Source: Eledone cirrhosa
Taxonomy: Eukaryota
DNA: 64,000 nt
Reading direction: 5' to 3'
Assembly: GCA_964016885.1 (NCBI GenBank)
Contig: OZ024740.1
Span: 210,676,001 to 210,740,000 of the forward strand
Part shown: positions 31,364 to 51,571 of the stretch, one piece after another
Numbering within the stretch: position 1 is the stretch's first letter
Layout of the letters: each line of letters starts with the position of its first letter
Translations under genes and position numbers: made by a program
Notes under the pieces: model-generated
What the model was told of the DNA's origin: nothing
The model's input: only the letters and a program-made list of their open reading frames with translations
The model's database searches: none

Positions 31364-33048
<1,685 letters not shown>

Positions 33049-41582: not shown

Positions 41583-42535
41583 TTTGACAGGGTTCCTTAC
41601 AACATTCTTCTGAAAAAACTATCCAACATTGGTGTCTCTGGAAATTTTCTGCAGTGGATCAAGTGTTTCCTGTCAAATAGAGTCCGACATGTTGTTGTCG
41701 AAGGAGTAAAATCCAGCTCAGACAACGTCAGTAGTGGTGTCCCACAAGGCACTTTGTTGGGCCCACTTCTTTTCATTATCTACTGACATTACTGACATCA
41801 TCAAGCGCAGTAGCATAAAAATCTTCGCAGATGTTTCCAAGCTCCAGAAGGTCACCAATGGCGTGGGTGACCGGATATGCCTCCAATCAGATCTACTGGC
41901 TGTTATCCAATGGGCGGAAAAGAACAATATGCTGCTGAACGAGGATAAATTTGAGTTAAACCACTTTGGAAAAGAGGATGCCCTGAATCTCCCATACTCC
42001 CTTCCTTCAGGTGAAACTCTCGTGGCATCCAATAACATCGGCCACTCATATAAACATCAAAGTTGACATGGCCCGCAGAATGTGTTCCTGAATTCTCAGA
42101 ACCTTCCAATCGAGAGATATCCACACTATTATCCTTCTCTTCTCCACTTTTCCATCAGCATTGCCCAAATGATGTTGGCATCACCTTTAAACTACACCCA
42201 AGGCTTGAGCCCCGTGCTATCCGCCCACAACAAAAATCACACTCGCATCTCATAATAACAATACGGTACAATTATTTCACCTCAATTGGCCCCGCTCTCT
42301 TTAGCATTACACCAAAATACATTAAAACAGAAACAGACTCCATAAAGTTCAAGAAGTCTTTGGACAAATTCTTTCAAGAAATCCCGAATAAACCTCCTAC
42401 ACCCGGATATGTCTCCGTAAACAATAACTCACTACTTGAGTGGGCCAAGGTGTCCAAATTCTGATTTGAAAGACTTCGCCACCTTAGACATGGCCTGGGC
42501 CAATACTGGCCAAAACCTATCAAACTTATCAAAGT
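41583..42535 (+). pseudogene. CR1/L2-group LINE RT 3' fragment, deleted and frameshifted
   Basis: FDRVPYNILLKKL..LQWIKCFLSNR..SGVPQGTLLGP..IFADVSKL..LQSDL..QWAEKNNMLLNEDK. Confidence 0.85.
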
Positions 42536-42548
42536 TATATATATATTA

Positions 42549-43234
42549 TATATTATAAAGCTGAGTGTCGTGTGTATTATGTATGTATGTATCCTACACA
42601 CCTCCCTATAGTTTGTTAGCTTTACTCTCTCCGTCGCTCTTCCCTCTCTCTATAATAGATCATTCCCCCTCTCTATAATTTAACTGCTTTACTCTCTCTG
42701 TTGCTCTTATGAAGTTGAGCGTCGTCTCTCCGTCGCTCTTCCCTATCTCTATAATAGATCATCCCCCTTCTCTATAATTTAACTGCTTTACTCTCTCTGT
42801 CGCTCTTCACTCTCAAATATTATAAAGTTGAGCGTCGTCTCTCTCTCCCTCTTTCACCCTCTCTATAATTTAACTGCTTTACTCTCTCTGTTGCTCTTAT
42901 GAAGTTGAGCGTCGTCTCTCCGTCGCTCTTCCCTATCTCTATAATAGATCATCCCCCTTCTCTATAATTTAACTGCTTTACTCTCTCTGTCGCTCTTCAC
43001 TCTCAAATATTATAAAGTTGAGCGTCGTCTCTTTCTCCCTCTTTCACCCTCTCTATAATTTAACTGCTTTACTCTCTGTCTCTCTTCACTCTCTATATGA
43101 CAACACTCTTTTACTTTCCGTTTTAATTGTATCTCTCTCTGTCTAACGGCCTAACACTCTCTTTTCACCCTCCCTCTGTTTTTCTGTCGTCGCTCGCATA
43201 AGTAACACACACACACACATAAACACACACACAC

Positions 43235-43322
<88 letters not shown>

Positions 43323-43577
43323 CCCACACACACACACACAAATACACATACTTTCTGTCGTCGCTCGCATAAGTAATACACACACGCACACACACACATA
43401 ATATAACATCAAAACAAAACACACATACACATATATAAACACACACACACACATATCCATACGTTATATGTATGTAAGATCATTCCCCTCTCTATAATTT
43501 AACTGCTTTAATCTCTCTGTCGCTCTTCACTCTCTATATGATAACACTGTTTTAGTTTCCGTATCTCACTTCAATAT

Positions 43578-43614
<37 letters not shown>

Positions 43615-43749
43615 TTTAGAGAAAGAGAGAGATTTAGAGAAAGATTAGGAAAACTACACACACACATCTACAGAGAGAGAGAAAAACAGAGGGAGGAGAA
43701 AAGAGAGAGATAGGCCGTTAGACAGAGAGAGATACAATTAGTGTTAGTT

Positions 43750-43785
<36 letters not shown>

Positions 43786-43881
43786 AAGGACAATGTGACA
43801 CGAGAGGGTGTGTGGTATCTCTGCAGTGGAGTGATGGGGGCTGGTATACCTAGCCGGACGCCAACCGGACGGGCCAGCTAG
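42549..43881 (+). mobile_element. Non-autonomous Helitron with 190-bp internal tandem duplication
   Basis: tatattataaagctga 5' end; ccggacgccaaccggacgggccagCTAG|T 3' end; interior matches 11341-11510. Confidence 0.8.
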
Positions 43882-44248
43882 TATATATATAAAATTGCAA
43901 GTTTGAAGAACAGTTAGATAAAATATACCCAAACTTTCTTCACCCCAGTTAAATAATCATTTAAACGGAACTATAAGTTTAAAATGTAACTTCGAAGAAA
44001 TAATAGATAAATGATACAGACTATTCCCCGCGAGGAATAGTCAGATAAAATTTACCCAGTCTTTCCTCTTAGCCCGTAGAAATTAACTAGCAATTTTACT
44101 TGCAATTTTACTTGCAATTTTATATATAGCTCTGATTAATAATTATTTGCTTAATTAAGTTTTCATTGAGCCACGCCGTGAAAGGTAGCCACACTCATAT
44201 ATGTCTAAATATATATCTAAATATATACATATATCCCTATGAATTTAT

Positions 44249-44316
<68 letters not shown>

Positions 44317-44459
44317 CTAGTGAAATTGTGGAATTAAAAATATATATATATATATATATAACGAAGGAAGTGTGGTAAGGAACCAGGTGGACCATAACGT
44401 GCCCAGAAATAGCCGTCGAAACGGCTTGAGCTCTGCCGTCGGAGTCTTGAACATTTTCC

Positions 44460-44545
<86 letters not shown>

Positions 44546-45126
44546 CCTAAAATCAGTGCGAGCGATAACTACATTAAGTTATCGGGACAGAGGAAAGAGA
44601 ACAAACAACATGGTAGTAACGCAACGTAAAAAGAAGAAAAGAAAGACAAGTTAATGAATCTTGTGGGTTTACGTCCGACAAATCAAATGACGAGAAGAAA
44701 ATAGACACGTCCGAGCCACGAACAAATTGAGAGAGGAAAGAATTAACGCAGGTCAGACGGGAGGAAGTGAGAGAGGAGGAGTAGGAGAGGGTGAGTGAGT
44801 GAAACTGTGAGGAAGGGGCCAGCTGAGAGAGTGTGACCAGCAGCGGGGATGGAGGAAAGTAAGAGGTAAGGGGGAGAGAGAGAAAGGAGAAAGCAATAAG
44901 GTAACAGAAAAAATACGAACCACAGCGAAGGGAAATTATATGTGAATGAAAAATGGCGTGCTGCGTTGTTGCGAATATGAACATATGAATAAAAATAAAC
45001 CGAGAAAAGTCCGTCATCAGTAGTCTACTGATTCTCATTGGTATTTCTTCGCATTACGTTGCGTTACTACCATGTTGTTTGTTCACTTTCCTCTGTCCCG
45101 ATAACTTAATGTAGTTATCGCTCGCA

Positions 45127-45193
45127 CTGATTTTAGGTATCTTGTCTTTAATGCGAAGAAATACCAATGAGAATCAGTAGACTACTGATGACG
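45127..45193 (+). ncRNA. Candidate non-circularly permuted hammerhead ribozyme (P1 copy 1)
   Basis: ctgatttt-a-ggta TC ttgtct ttaatgcgaa GAAA tacc-aatg-agaatcag t agacta CTGATGA cg. Confidence 0.55.
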
Positions 45194-45461
45194 GACTTTT
45201 CTCGGTCTATTTTTATTCATATGTTCATATTCGCAACAACGCAGCACGCCATTTTTCATTCACACATATTTTCCCTTTGCTGTGGTTCGTATTTTTTCGT
45301 GGCTCGGACGTGTCTATTTTCTTTTCGTCATTTAATTTGTCGGACTTAAGCCCACAAGATTCATTAACTTGTCTTTCTTTTCTTCTCTTTACGTTGCATT
45401 ACTACCATGTTGTTTGTTCACTTTCCTCTGTCCCGATAACTTAATTTAGTTATCGCTCGCA

Positions 45462-45528
45462 CTGATTTTAGGTATCTAGTCTTTAATGCGAAGAAATACC
45501 AATGAGAATCAGCAGACTACTGATGACG
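45462..45528 (+). ncRNA. Candidate non-circularly permuted hammerhead ribozyme (P1 copy 2)
   Basis: As copy 1 but with a perfect tagtct/agacta helix. Confidence 0.6.
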
Positions 45529-45588
45529 GACTTTTCTCGGTCTATTTTTATTCCTATGTTCATATTCGCAACAACGCAGCACGCCATT

Positions 45589-45657
<69 letters not shown>

Positions 45658-45662
<5 letters not shown>

Positions 45663-47487
45663 ATACTTGGGGAGGGTCATATTTGCGTAATATTGCCAGA
45701 ATTAATAACAGAACACACTCACTGTTTGGTTGGTTTTCGCTTCTCGCTGTCTTTTATATCTGCGATCTAACTTACTCGGTCCCCAATGTTGCCATTGACT
45801 GACCGACGGTCAAAAATAATACAGATACAACATAGACACAAACACATATATATAGTTTACATAATTTACATAAATCTTCCGTTGCACATCTGCAACATCG
45901 TCAGTGGTGTTATATTTTTTCCTCCTGTTGTGTTGTATGTCTACGCCATTTTTTATTCAGTCTGTCTATATATTTATTTATTTATTTGCTTGTTTATTTT
46001 ATTTTGTCTTCTTTGCGCATGCGGTTGCGTGTGTGTATAGTGTTATGTGTGCTGTGTGACTAGTGTGTATAGTGTTGTGTCTGTTGGGTGACTAGTGTGT
46101 GTTTATGTGCTTGTTGTTATTGTGCTTGTGTATGTATTTATTTATCTTATTTTATTTTATTTTGTTTACTTATTTATACTTCTCTTAGGTCAGTGTTGTT
46201 TGTTTGGGTGTTGTTGTTGTTCCACTCATTCTTTCTGTTTAGCTTTGGTCTTCTAATTTCTATTTCACTGGCCTCTCTGATTTGCCTATCTGCTTGGTCA
46301 TTCTTATGTTTAGATATTATTCTAATTTCTATGTTGTCTATGTTACCGTCATGTTGTTGTCTAGCATGTTCGTATAGTACTGACCCGTTTTTTCTTCCTT
46401 TTAGTTCCCCCCAGTGTTGGTCTATCCTTTCACCTATGCTACGAGCTGTCTCACCTATGTATGTTGTTGTCATGTTTCTGCAAGTACCCTCTGTACATCT
46501 TATGCTATAGACTACGTTTCTAGTTTTACAGTTTATCCGGGGGTTCACCTTACATATGATACATTTCCTATTGGTACAGTGGGTTTTCTTAAAAGGGTAG
46601 GTTTTGCTGATCAGGGATTTTATGGTGGTTCCTGGCTTTTCTACCACCTTTATTTTTAAGTGGGTCTTTCTCAGGGCCTTTCTACACTGGTTAGCTAATT
46701 TCCCTCCAGGGGTGGCGTCCACAAACATGACACTCTGATATCTCTGGTTGTCGTACCATGATGTGGCCTTCCCTATCTTATGTCTAGCCCTATCTAAGCT
46801 ATTCCATGATTTGCTCCTGTATAGTGGGCAAATTCCTTTCATGTCCAGTTCTATGAGGGTCTTATACTTTTCCATGGCTCCTTCGTATACTCTGACTCTG
46901 TCTCTTTGGTTGTAGCCAGAGAACTGCATGCGGTTGATGAAGTGTTGGATGTGTCTTTCCATTTCTGTTGGGTCGCACATGCTGGACACATTCTTCATCA
47001 CTCGTACCAAATCTGCGATCAGAATATTAAACTTAGCACTACTGGACATTGCTGAGTTTTTGAGTATCAGGTATTTGGAGGCCATGGGTTTAGCATAGTG
47101 TGAGTGGAGAATTTGGGCTCTCTCGTCTATAGTGTTAATCCAGAGTTCTGTGTCTAATACAGGTAGTCTATTGTTAGGGTGTTTGAAAGGGAAGTCGATA
47201 GTTACAGTTATACTCTGGTGTATGGAATTAGCTATCTGCTGGATGCTTTCCATCGTGCTACGTTCTAAATCAAACTTGTTAGTGCTCTCTAGTGGGGGTG
47301 TTCTTATAACTATATTGATATCGTCTACATAACGAGAGTACATGATGAGGTCTATGGAGCTTTCATTAAGGAGATCTTTAAGTCTCCTTTCCCACCATAC
47401 CATGAAAAGGTTGGCAACATCACCAGCTATGCTGACGCCGATGGCTGCTCCCTCATTTTGGGTGTAGATTTTCTCATTGAACTTATA
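45658..47487 (-). mobile_element. Penelope-like element, 5'-truncated, with 3' UTR
   Basis: Open RT-GIY-YIG frame followed by about 500 nt of non-coding sequence ending at (TA)n. Confidence 0.85.
46174..47487 (-). pseudogene. PLE RT (motif B onward) + GIY-YIG endonuclease, uninterrupted but N-terminally truncated
   Basis: QNEGAAIGVSIAGDVANLFM, YSRYVDDI, LPVLDTEL, CTNRKCIIC, NVVYSIRC..TYIGETARSIGERIDQH, RQIREA..PKLNRKNEW. Confidence 0.9.
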
Positions 47488-47512
47488 GAAGCTATCTTTA
47501 TAAAACCAATCT

Positions 47513-47573
47513 TATTTTATTATATATATTTCAAGGGTACCAACATGTTGGTACGCCCTCATCAGATAAAATA
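47513..47573 (-). ncRNA. Type I minimal hammerhead ribozyme (family B)
   Basis: tattttat CTGATGA gggcgtaccaac-at-gttggtaccctt GAAA tatata TA ataaaata. Confidence 0.8.
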
Positions 47574-48196
47574 TAAAAGTTGGTTTACAGATAGTGACAT
47601 ATTCAGACAATAACTTAATGTTGTGAGTTCTATTTGAATAGTGAAGAAAAACTTCAAATCACAAGATGAATATGCTAATGAGGATAACGTTAAAACTGAA
47701 AAAGATCGTTGTGTTTAGACGCTAGGTAAATTTAAATAATCATTAGGATTATTTTTTTTAATAAGAAAAGGAAATAAGGGTTTTTATTAGGGTAGAAGAA
47801 AATTTAAGGAAAGATTTTAAGAAAAAAAATATATTAAAGCTACTAATAGAATATTTATAGGAATGTACGTATATGATTGTCCGGAACGTATTTGTAAGGG
47901 TGTAGAGAGAATGAAATCATTATATTTATTTTTATTTATTTAATTATTTAATTATATATTTTGGAAGTATTTATAATATAATGTGTGAATTATAAATAAA
48001 TGTTAAAGTGAGAGAATATTAATTTAAAATGTGAAAGGTATCTTGTATTTATATATACAATTGGGTCTATTCTACTGGTGTGTTTTAATATTATGAAGAT
48101 TGCAGTTATGAGTATATTTTATAATATTATAAGAAGTTAGTTGTATATACATTACGTTCTTGTCTGAGTATGTCACTATCTGTAAAGCAACTTTTG

Positions 48197-48257
48197 TATT
48201 TTATCTGATGAGAGCATACCAAAATGTTGGTACCCTTGAAATATATATAATAAAATA
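48197..48257 (+). ncRNA. Type I minimal hammerhead ribozyme (family B, inverted copy)
   Basis: tattttat CTGATGA gagcataccaa-aatg-ttggtaccctt GAAA tatata TA ataaaata. Confidence 0.75.
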
Positions 48258-48354
48258 AATATGGTTTTATAAAGATAGCTTCCATTTATTAATATTATTG
48301 ATATATATATATATATGTAATATAAGATCAAAAGATGGTTAAAAGAGTTCCAAG

Positions 48355-48425
48355 TATTTTATTATGCGCATTTCAAAAACAAATATCATCATGAGATGAT
48401 ATCTGCGTTTTCATCAGATAAAATA
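48355..48425 (-). ncRNA. Type I hammerhead ribozyme (family C)
   Basis: Reverse complement of 48527-48597. Confidence 0.8.
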
Positions 48426-48526
48426 GGGATACATGATATGAAGGTTAAAAAACACTTGTGGATAGTGAAGTTTTAAATCAACTTTACTATTCACAAGTGC
48501 TTTTTAACCTTCATATCATGTATACC

Positions 48527-48597
48527 TATTTTATCTGATGAAAACGCAGATATCATCTCATGATGATATTTGTTTTTGAAATGCGCATAATAAAATA
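48527..48597 (+). ncRNA. Type I hammerhead ribozyme (family C)
   Basis: tattttat CTGATGA aaacgcagatatcatc-tcat-gatgatatttgttttt GAAA tgcgca TA ataaaata. Confidence 0.82.
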
Positions 48598-48741
48598 CTT
48601 GGAACTCTTTTAACCATCTTTTGATCTTATATTATTTATACTCCAGTCCTACAAATTGTAGAGTGCTACTTATCCGATATTTGCATTGCTTTATTGTGCT
48701 ACAATAAAACTCACCTCCTACATATATATATATATATATAT

Positions 48742-49152
48742 ATATGTATAGAAATTTCGGCTTTAGGAAGCCGTAGCTATGCAAACACCCGGACTAACGC
48801 CCTCTGGTGGTGTCCATCAGAAGCAAGGGGGCACAACCGTCTATGCATTTCAGGCTTGACTGGCCTTCTTCAGGACGCCCCCTCCTCACCGCCTGCAGTT
48901 TCATATGCAAATGAGATTAATCACCTCATTTACACAGACGAGAAAACTATATATTCTCGACTGTTTTCAAGTCCAGCAGTCGCAAGCGGTGGGAGGCACC
49001 GTCCCGAAGAAGGCCAGTCAAGCATGAAATGCAGAAACAGTTGTCCCCCTTGCTTCTGCTGGACACCACCAGAGGGCGTTAGCCCCGGTGTTTGCATAGC
49101 TACGGGTTCCTAAAACCGTCTTTCTTTAGAAATACGAAATTTCTATACATAT
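48742..49152. mobile_element. GC-rich fold-back element (family D) with hammerhead motifs in both arms
   Basis: About 150-bp imperfect inverted arms; TA-rich flanks. Confidence 0.75.
48838..48877 (-). ncRNA. Type I minimal hammerhead ribozyme (family D)
   Basis: cgtc CTGAAGA aggc-cagtcaa-gcct GAAA tgca TA gacg; the partner at 49000-49040 (+) is degenerate (CCGAAGA). Confidence 0.8.
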
Positions 49153-49188
49153 TTGTATAAGCTATGCTTGAAGCGAAGTCTTATTTCT

Positions 49189-49234
<46 letters not shown>

Positions 49235-49510
49235 TGTGTGTGTGTGTGTGCATGTATATGTATATATAATATATATATATATTCATATACATACAAGCAT
49301 ACGTACATACGTATTCATGAAAGTATGTTTGTCGTTTCTAGCTTGTAAGTTTTACAAAAGGTAAAATTCCTGGCTATACCTGGCTGTCTTGTCAAATTTT
49401 CAAAATGTCTGCCACAATCTTTGTGCTACATGGCATTTCATTGTAGGTTGTGTTTTTTCAAAAAAATCTCTTTCGCTTTCTTCCTTCCTCCCTCCCCTTC
49501 TTTCTCTCTG

Positions 49511-49568
<58 letters not shown>

Positions 49569-49619
49569 TTCTCTTCCTTCCTTTCACCTGTTCGCCCTCT
49601 TTCTTACTTTGACTACTGT

Positions 49620-49868
49620 AATAGTTATTATTGTTGTTGTTGTTGTTCTTATTATTATTGCAGTTGTTGGAATTGATGTTGTTATTGTTGTTGTTGTTTT
49701 TGGAATTCGTATATTGGCTTTGTTGCTGTTGTTGTTGTTGTTTTATTAATAGTAGTAGCATTAGTAGTAATAGCAGTAGTAGTAGCAGTAGCAGCAATAG
49801 TAATAGTAGCAGCAGAAGCAGCAGCAGCAGCATTAGTAGTAGTAGTAGTAGCAGCAGCAGCAGTAGCA

Positions 49869-49914
<46 letters not shown>

Positions 49915-49985
49915 TAGTAGTAGAAGTATTAGAAGTAGTAGTAGTAGTAGTAGAAGTATTAGAAGTAGTAGTAGTAGTAGTAGTA
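49620..49985. repeat. (TTG)n then (AGC/AGT)n trinucleotide arrays
   Basis: Direct reading. Confidence 0.9.
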
Positions 49986-50114
49986 TAGAGAGATTCCGTA
50001 GGTTGTTCTCCCAGACTAAGTCATTTGTTGTTACATTATTAACTGGCTGCTGTCAACCTGGTAATTGCACCGTACACCTCCTACCAGGCCACTTCACTGG
50101 CCTCCCCACGATAA

Positions 50115-51356: not shown

Positions 51357-51437
51357 GGTAAACAGAAATAACAACACAATCGGTACAGTATATGGAAGGG
51401 GTATATTAGGTTAACGCTTGATATAGCAGGAAGAGGG

Positions 51438-51473
51438 TCTTAACGTTTCGGACGCTAGTCCTTCATCAGAAGA
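51438..51473 (-). ncRNA. Minimal hammerhead motif (PLE-type, ACGT palindromic stem III)
   Basis: tctt CTGATGA a ggac-tagc-gtcc GAAA cg TT aaga. Confidence 0.7.
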
Positions 51474-51571
51474 AAGAATGAGAAATAAGATAGATTGAGG
51501 GGACGGGCGGGATGGAATTGGAAAAAATGTCTTTAGATAAAAATAACAGGTCCATTCATGTTGACATCTCT

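Follow-up and report, generated by a model that had tools for sequence, protein, structure and literature searches.

A damaged, two-armed copy of a small non-coding mobile repeat with a predicted S-G-C hammerhead in the genome of Eledone cirrhosa

The element at positions 44543-45592 of a 64,000-nucleotide stretch of Eledone cirrhosa DNA (contig OZ024740.1, positions 210,676,001 to 210,740,000; hereafter the window) is one damaged copy of a small non-coding mobile repeat with a unit of about 520 bases. We consider it probable that the element is a two-armed insertion, with one arm internally deleted, of a non-coding 500-560-nt retrozyme that is likely non-autonomous and was copied into (TA)n by the reverse transcriptase (RT) of a Penelope-like element (PLE). 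The predicted hammerhead fold that it carries is common to thousands of related repeats in this genome. An earlier sequence-only reading had proposed a non-autonomous, PLE-moved retrozyme copied from cut 335-nt monomers. The non-coding, multi-copy and tandem structure with a permuted hammerhead, the 5′ truncation, the inverted arms, the 3′ ends in (TA)n and the lack of terminal inverted repeats fit the first part of this proposal, whereas the 335-nt monomer, and cut monomers as the normal route of copying, are not supported.

Architecture of the element

Features in and around the element (window positions, strand, description):
44463..44542, no strand: (AC)n with a little (AT)n, flanking the inverted arm on its 3′ side
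44543..45056, minus: inverted arm, 514 nt, spanning +8 to -1 when counted from the predicted cleavage site
44728..44906, minus: pyrimidine-rich part of the monomer, missing from the plus arm and present in other family copies
45044..45056, no strand: head-to-head junction of the arms, with a 10-of-13 microhomology read from the sequence
45057..45592, plus: direct arm, made of 1.6 deletion-variant units of 335 nt
45095..45196, plus: predicted S-G-C hammerhead and scaffold, copy 1, site after C45141
45291..45298, plus: 8-nt microhomology at a 187-nt deletion
45430..45531, plus: predicted S-G-C hammerhead and scaffold, copy 2, site after C45476
45593..45658, no strand: (AT)33 target, common tail-to-tail to the element and the adjacent PLE-1
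45659..47511, minus: PLE-1, a 5′-truncated young PLE with RT end, CX4CXXC linker and GIY-YIG

The element is a two-armed insertion in which a minus arm and a direct arm are placed head to head. The plus strand at 45057-45592 holds about 1.6 units with a period of 335 nt (a 226-nt repeat, 95%, at a spacing of 335), both ends of the element lie inside microsatellite, and there is no credible open reading frame, the longest stop-to-stop frame being 159 aa with nothing supporting it. The inverted arm starts 7 nt past the predicted cleavage site, at 45056, and ends with ...GGTAT at 44543, one base short of the C of the AUC. All of this had been read correctly from the sequence. The inverted copy had also been taken for a 335-nt monomer, and this is not so: it measures 514 nt and includes 44728-44906, which is absent from the plus unit. 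It is nearly a whole full-size monomer, opening with the G and C blocks and closing with the scaffold and GGTAT, and it holds no complete linear-order ribozyme. The supposed monomer size of 335 nt is likewise peculiar to this locus, as the 16 other loci of the family with two tandem cores have periods of 500-561 nt (one also shows 419), and the unit at locus L007 is 528 nt. The 335-nt unit is an ordinary local deletion: the short period of the plus arm arose because 187 nt were deleted at an 8-nt microhomology.

The direct arm ends at 45592, which is the commonest 3′ end of the family and lies 116 nt past site 2. The 5′ start of the inverted arm (+8) is on the 10-of-13 microhomology with its partner arm, and its 3′ end shares TAT with the (TA)n flank. 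Beside the element, another short repeat (44361-44460) follows (TA)n, here and at L026, L109, L112, L115, L179 and L202. The 3′ end of the element (45582-45592, plus) and the 3′ region of PLE-1 (about 45943-45956) share CGCCATTTT on the plus strand, in opposite orientation relative to the transcripts of the two; we take this sequence to resemble a YY1 site.

The predicted hammerhead and its scaffold

The conserved blocks follow the order site block (GGUAUC then UAGUCU), GAAA block and CUGAUGA block, which is type SGC. Six helices are predicted, namely stems I and III and four helices formed with or within the upstream strand (Pa, Pb, Pc and Pd). Copy 1 pairs at 4/4 positions of Pa, 7/7 of Pb, 5/5 of Pc, 6/6 of Pd, 5/5 of stem III and 5/6 of stem I; in copy 2, with GAAA at 45493 and CUGAUGA at 45520, all six helices are fully paired. 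Position 10.1-11.1 is C-A in both. A descriptor of the S-G-C arrangement matched twice in the window versus never in 60 Markov controls of 64 kb, well beyond what chance would give, and exact matches to the core pattern number 14,561 in the 3.0 Gb of genome searched versus none for the reversed pattern. The same pattern had no match in viral contigs and three in metagenome contigs, none with the helices as judged by eye. An Rfam search of 42000-50000 gave no hammerhead at E<=1, only microsatellite noise, and single-strand folding of the element gave a z of -0.38 by a method that misses pseudoknots.

Among 15 aligned family copies, 91.7% of the cells are paired and 20 of 33 pairs have changed on both sides, including all six pairs of Pd; three rows of the alignment are out of register, which lowers the pair count. 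None of 500 shuffles reached these values (slid controls, 27-50%), a result that does not amount to a probability, because the copies were chosen by hand and are related, and relatedness inflates it. The blocks stand in S-G-C order with an intact core and covarying stems I and III. Stem II, by which the strand after CUGAUGA would join the strand before GAAA, is not formed (37% paired over five columns), and within this region only 10.1-11.1 pairs, in 9 of the 15 copies. The strand after CUGAUGA pairs upstream as Pa, and the strand before GAAA finds its partner upstream in Pc. Because the flanking strands pair with the upstream scaffold and form no stem II, the C block is opened after position 10.1.

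U16.1 is present in 122 of 122 intact copies, though the search had left it free, and H17 is only C or A. The 10.1-11.1 position is unpaired in 53 of the 122, and because stem II is open and this pair is often missing, the predicted fold may cut poorly or need a protein. Family Z, which is distant in sequence and has a GUC site, shows an identical wiring. The window itself holds a second element, of a sister family, at 32540-32980, with an S-G-C core on the minus strand and its site at 32659; it is 5′-truncated, its inverted arm has the CUGAUGA block deleted, and it ends in (AC)n/(AT)n.

The window family and its copy ends

A 30-mer spanning the site of the element has 247 exact matches in the genome, and the element therefore belongs to a dispersed family (hereafter the window family); S-G-C families are many genome-wide, with units of about 500-800 nt. 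The copies are dispersed 0.2-2.4-mers. The family is also present in X1-X3, contigs of independent-format read assemblies from one sample, which may be the source; they contain no RNA starts or ends and are not evidence of expression.

Ends were mapped on 114 arms at 84 loci (100 loci minus 14 duplicates and minus L055 and L092, which belong to other or very diverged families) and then on 25 arms at 17 further loci. Arms shorter than 60 nt were left out, four 5′ ends were placed by hand, and unit positions were counted from the base after the AUC in the 528-nt natural monomer. The 3′ ends of the first set, which include a few bases overlapping the (TA)n flank, fall at 115-131 (49 arms), 76-90 (41), 58-70 (9) and elsewhere (14), with one at 527, the inverted arm of our element. 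The same three windows hold 22 of the 25 ends of the second set (one at 72). Over both sets, 121 of 139 arms end 58-131 nt downstream of the site, mostly before (TA)n, and, of the five TA-like clusters that the unit contains, three coincide with these windows. The 5′ ends are ragged, arm length varying only on that side, and both strands occur head to head at 30 of the 84 loci and at 10 of the 17. Terminal inverted repeats with fixed ends on both sides were not found in the window family, and no target-site duplication is readable in the (TA)n in which its ends lie.

Craig et al. (2021; PMC8557442) give a (TA)n bias together with partial tandem copies and inverted 5′ copies as a PLE signature, and internal RT starts with unprocessed RNA as the main substrate have been described for an anole PLE (Frangieh 2024; PMC11167929). 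The 5′ truncation, the partial tandems, the inverted arms and the few fixed 3′ ends therefore fit a PLE-moved non-autonomous element.

The predicted cleavage site and the copying route

In the sequence-only reading, the AUC site was held to set the copy boundaries and cut unit-length monomers were held to be what is copied. As a family rule the first claim fails, since 1 of 114 arms and 0 of 25 further arms end at the site. The second fares no better as the normal route: 100 of the 114 arms cross at least one site (14 cross none, 72 one, 27 two and one three, so that 28 cross two or more), and of five arms that end at the site and reach the previous one, four cross it. The start of arms that cross two sites is often 55-140 nt upstream of the first (unit positions 385-474), where a transcription start inside the unit is possible.

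When the genome was searched for arms that stop at the site and are followed by (TA)n, 39 matches turned up at 28 places. Of these places 27 are element-like, four of them from the window family, and the 27 represent about 0.2% of core matches, lie on the TAT overlap and are counted without a matched control site. Among the 21 places covered, L392 holds no element and L397 and L398 have a TA insertion and not an end. The 18 true site ends that remain comprise four arms that cross the previous site, 13 that start inside the unit and a single unit-length arm, which is the inverted arm at 44543-45056. At L397 and L398, near 1520, a few extra TA bases stand exactly at the predicted site and the sequence then continues, perhaps through slippage or non-templated addition at ligation.

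On the 5′ side, 8 of 20 arms at risk in a pattern-picked set stop 1-33 nt downstream of the site after one round, an excess over the mid-unit rate of 0.076 per 33 nt (binomial p 6e-5). All 5′ ends lie more than 2 nt away from the site, stops remain as frequent beyond 1-33 (4/12), and in the second round, over all loci, 14 of 23 arms stop 67-132 nt before the site. The 17 loci of the second set show no stop at 1-33 among 24 arms, of which one reached that interval. The cluster at 1-33 hints weakly that some templates are limited by the site. The 5′-end pattern fits an occasionally cut template one unit or so in length with a short lead, and it also fits stalling in the fold.

It has to be asked whether the ribozyme cuts the RNA to monomers, which circularise and are copied round by a PLE RT, so that the inverted arm would be a doubly cut monomer. 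Rolling copying would explain the arms that cross one to three sites, and the +8 to -1 span of the inverted arm, the 27 site ends and the cluster of stops just past the site all speak for such a route, as does the production of linear and circular monomers by animal retrozymes (PMC7229834). However, a single one of the 18 site ends starts by the previous site while four cross it, the persisting 5′ stop rate, with no end within 2 nt of the site, fits limited template length or stalling, the further loci did not repeat the 1-33 cluster, and the site ends are a very small share of cores and lie on the TAT overlap. We consider this route rather unlikely. As for structure, the circular minimum free energies of the 528-nt and 335-nt units are no lower than those of 15 shuffles (monomer as circle, -65.4 vs -70.0 +/- 8.5 kcal/mol). 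A doubly cut monomer may, as a rare event, have been copied into the inverted arm; this arm was chosen for its site-to-site ends, and both of these are also on microhomologies.

A different possibility is that the fold no longer cuts and is kept as a handle for the PLE protein, placing the RT start just downstream. The open stem II, the constant spacing of 3′ ends beyond the fold both in every family seen and in published Naiads, and the in vitro finding that hammerhead ribozyme (HHR) mutants had no effect on insertion (PMC11167929) would agree with a handle. Conservation argues the other way, because U16.1 and H17 obey cleavage rules in every one of the 122 copies and the core is kept in distant family Z while the helices change, as catalytic selection predicts. 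A fold that serves solely as a handle is in our view improbable.

We therefore return to a PLE-moved, likely non-autonomous retrozyme, for the most part probably copied from RNA that is circular or an uncut multimer, and for it the following steps are proposed. An RNA of 1.3-2 units would be made from a tandem source copy. The PLE protein would nick (TA)n and start copying about 65, 80 or 120 nt past the last ribozyme, three internal starts at which the RNA would have a short UA-like match to the target. Copying would run back through the uncut (or re-ligated) site, the other DNA end would prime a second arm, and the arms would be joined by their 5′ ends at a microhomology. Self-cleavage would trim some templates or make circles and would not set most copy ends.

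Neighbouring and young Penelope-like elements

The 445-aa frame of PLE-1 lies at 46174-47511 (motifs read by eye; Pfam RVT_1 weak, E 0.006). Its copies are 98% identical, as are those of a second element, PLE-2, and the two are therefore young PLE families. Both have the CX4CXXC linker, which is given for Neptune and Nematis (PMC8557442), their mutual identity is 23-25%, and PLE-2 carries a canonical minimal hammerhead.

PLE-1 had been suggested as a partner of the element, and if it were the autonomous partner, with the unit as its terminal repeat, its adjacency, its youth, its (TA)n target and its similar inverted and tailed structures would all be accounted for. However, the (TA)n target is the only thing the two have in common. 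None of 19 other PLE-1 copies examined adjoins the window family or matches the unit, bar a sister element inserted at the PLE-1 locus L111; no direct fusion to PLE-1 occurs in 101 family loci; the two are arranged tail to tail over a shared microsatellite; and the 3′ region of PLE-1 (about 45860-45910, minus) holds a canonical-order hammerhead core remnant, different from the S-G-C fold. The unit sequence has no match in the two young PLE families or in 23 Naiad-like remnants. A terminal-repeat role is refuted for the 3′ end of PLE-1, and the partnership as a whole is very doubtful; PLE-1 may act on the window family in trans.

The core remnant at about 45860-45910 consists of CUGACGA, a 6-bp hairpin and GGAA, with no clear stem I or III, and L146 holds a 62%-identical relative of this region with an intact minimal type I form. 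PLE-1 copies at L112, L107, L113, L106 and L116 end at the same base as in the window or 40-60 nt into the next unit, and the extra 40-60 nt are the PLE "tail". At the 5′ break of PLE-1 there are two long inverted repeats (47485-48285 and 48312-48640, arms of 137 and 161 nt). A short repeat at 51433-51527 (minus) has a canonical-order core (CUGAUGA, hairpin, GAAAC), occurs at at least eight other loci and also precedes the PLE-2 piece at L168.

A sister family, D, is found joined to PLE-2:
L147:1500-3043, family D/PLE-2 fusion
L148:1-1620, family D/PLE-2 fusion
L168:2746-5680, family D/PLE-2 fusion, a more complex third case

At L147 and L148, a family D arm is fused directly, head to head, to a 5′-truncated PLE-2 arm, and both 3′ ends are in (TA)n. 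Because this geometry equals that of the two-armed insertions, one insertion event with two templates would be the simplest reading. Fusions make up 2-3 of the 50 loci L121-L170 (some overlapping); there are none at 29 other PLE-2 loci within the sequence covered (four extend past it) or at 101 window-family loci. At L036 and L111 the PLE and the element are separated by a few TA units, and these were left uncounted. At L157 a family Z copy is followed by a PLE 3′ end, a one-off that was set aside, the other Z copies ending in (TA)n.

The remaining alternative, a repeat at the DNA level, be it a MITE, a satellite or a fold-back artefact, in which hammerhead-like words occur by chance and for which the long inverted repeat formed by the two arms might be cited, is extremely improbable given that the termini are not mutual inverted copies, that arm length varies at the 5′ side only, that helix covariation and the chance controls contradict it, and that the family also occurs in X1-X3 (one sample, which may be the source).

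Connection with Naiads

Craig et al. (PMC8557442) report Naiads to be without a canonical HHR and give only "core" and "half core" notes. The consensus sequences Naiad_Obim and Naiad_Ovul end about 80 nt past a full copy of the S-G-C fold, and among the 29 CTGATGA places listed from the Naiad supplement a further five or six show the fold near 3′ ends (three records beside Naiad_Aacu/Anas and two or three others), in each case as read by eye.

The Naiad-like copies in Eledone cirrhosa are only old remnants. A Naiad-type motif has 69 matches in the genome, most of them broken and none above 83% identity to the query fragment; the remnants at L313-L317 and L349-L368 show, by eye, motifs like those of the octopus Naiads of PMC8557442. 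No S-G-C core was found downstream of the 23 Naiad-like remnants examined, the octopus Naiad ribozyme pattern gave one decayed genome match with no ORF, and one RT-motif pattern gave none. Among 50 GIY-YIG loci the motif is present in 45, always near the frame end, and none is Naiad-like. L168, a candidate for a Naiad carrying the fold, was rejected, its endonuclease being C-terminal. Nearest-neighbour identity is 96% for window-family cores and has a median of 85% for Naiad-like copies, and the window family therefore looks younger than the local Naiads.

We believe that the S-G-C fold likely derives from a Naiad 3′ end, an origin that rests on consensus sequences of other species read by eye, and that the present helper is likely another, young PLE and not a Naiad. 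We tentatively raise the possibility, somewhat doubtful as it is, that an active hammerhead with an opened stem II and a scaffold is the overlooked terminal ribozyme of Naiads, that more than 14,000 retrozyme copies arose from it and have outlived the Naiads, and that these now ride a different PLE clade and have been caught in retrozyme/PLE two-template insertions.

Comparison with known systems

Animal (non-LTR) retrozymes (Cervera and de la Pena 2020, PMC7229834; Li, Clavereau and Pollet 2026, bioRxiv 10.64898/2026.07.22.740005) likewise consist of non-coding head-to-tail units with a single hammerhead in each, have a GC content below 50% and are proposed to be mobilised by PLEs. The hammerhead of non-LTR retrozymes is type I, whereas that of the window family is S-G-C with a scaffold. 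The window family further differs in its dispersed 0.2-2.4-mers, fixed internal 3′ ends, inverted arms and 500-560-nt unit. The stable, highly self-paired circle expected of a non-LTR retrozyme is not predicted for the window family, which is known from DNA only. Where a non-LTR retrozyme has a target-site duplication, it would be expected to exceed 4 bp.

The type-SGC hammerhead HRIMA-1 and its variants (Eckert et al. 2023, PMC10085705) have the S, G, C order and intact core in common with our fold, as well as a short linker that leads from stem I to the strand preceding GAAA and an extra helix tying stems I and II; we infer that Pd is the counterpart of the helix I of Eckert et al. In their type, stem II is contiguous with CUGAnGA and the blocks are taken to be uninterrupted, whereas the window fold is opened via Pa and Pc. 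Theirs had not been found in any genome of a known organism and was shown to cleave, whereas ours lies in an animal genome and is predicted.

Naiad PLEs (Craig et al. 2021) likewise insert into (TA)n and occur as partial tandems and with inverted 5′ copies; the octopus, coral and other Naiad consensus sequences show, by eye, the S-G-C fold about 70-80 nt before the 3′ end, and octopus Naiads have the UUAUUUUA loop in common with the window family. Naiads encode EN-RT, whereas the window element encodes nothing. The anole Poseidon PLE (PMC11167929) likewise has few fixed internal RT starts, an AT-rich target and uncut RNA. It is autonomous with a canonical HHR, whereas the window element is neither, and its RT starts lack target homology, whereas the proposed starts of the window family overlap the TA target.

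Significance

The retrozyme layout is already known, and what is new here is a corrected size for the unit, the statistics on copy ends and the fusions with PLE-2. Within the literature covered, which includes few subscription papers, type SGC appears only in Eckert et al. and neither in animals nor in Naiads; the supplements of Li et al. and Eckert et al. may contain animal examples. Non-circularly permuted hammerheads have been known from environmental sequence only, with the three blocks assumed unbroken. If true, a version with an opened stem II in more than 14,000 animal copies would change the search rules for this ribozyme, and the fold in Naiads would, if true, remove the puzzle of Naiads without a hammerhead. 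The mapped ends form a natural data set on the copying of a passenger RNA by PLEs, covering internal starts, read-through of the site, and two-armed and two-template insertions, and they bear on the question of the form, cut circle or uncut multimer, in which animal retrozymes move.
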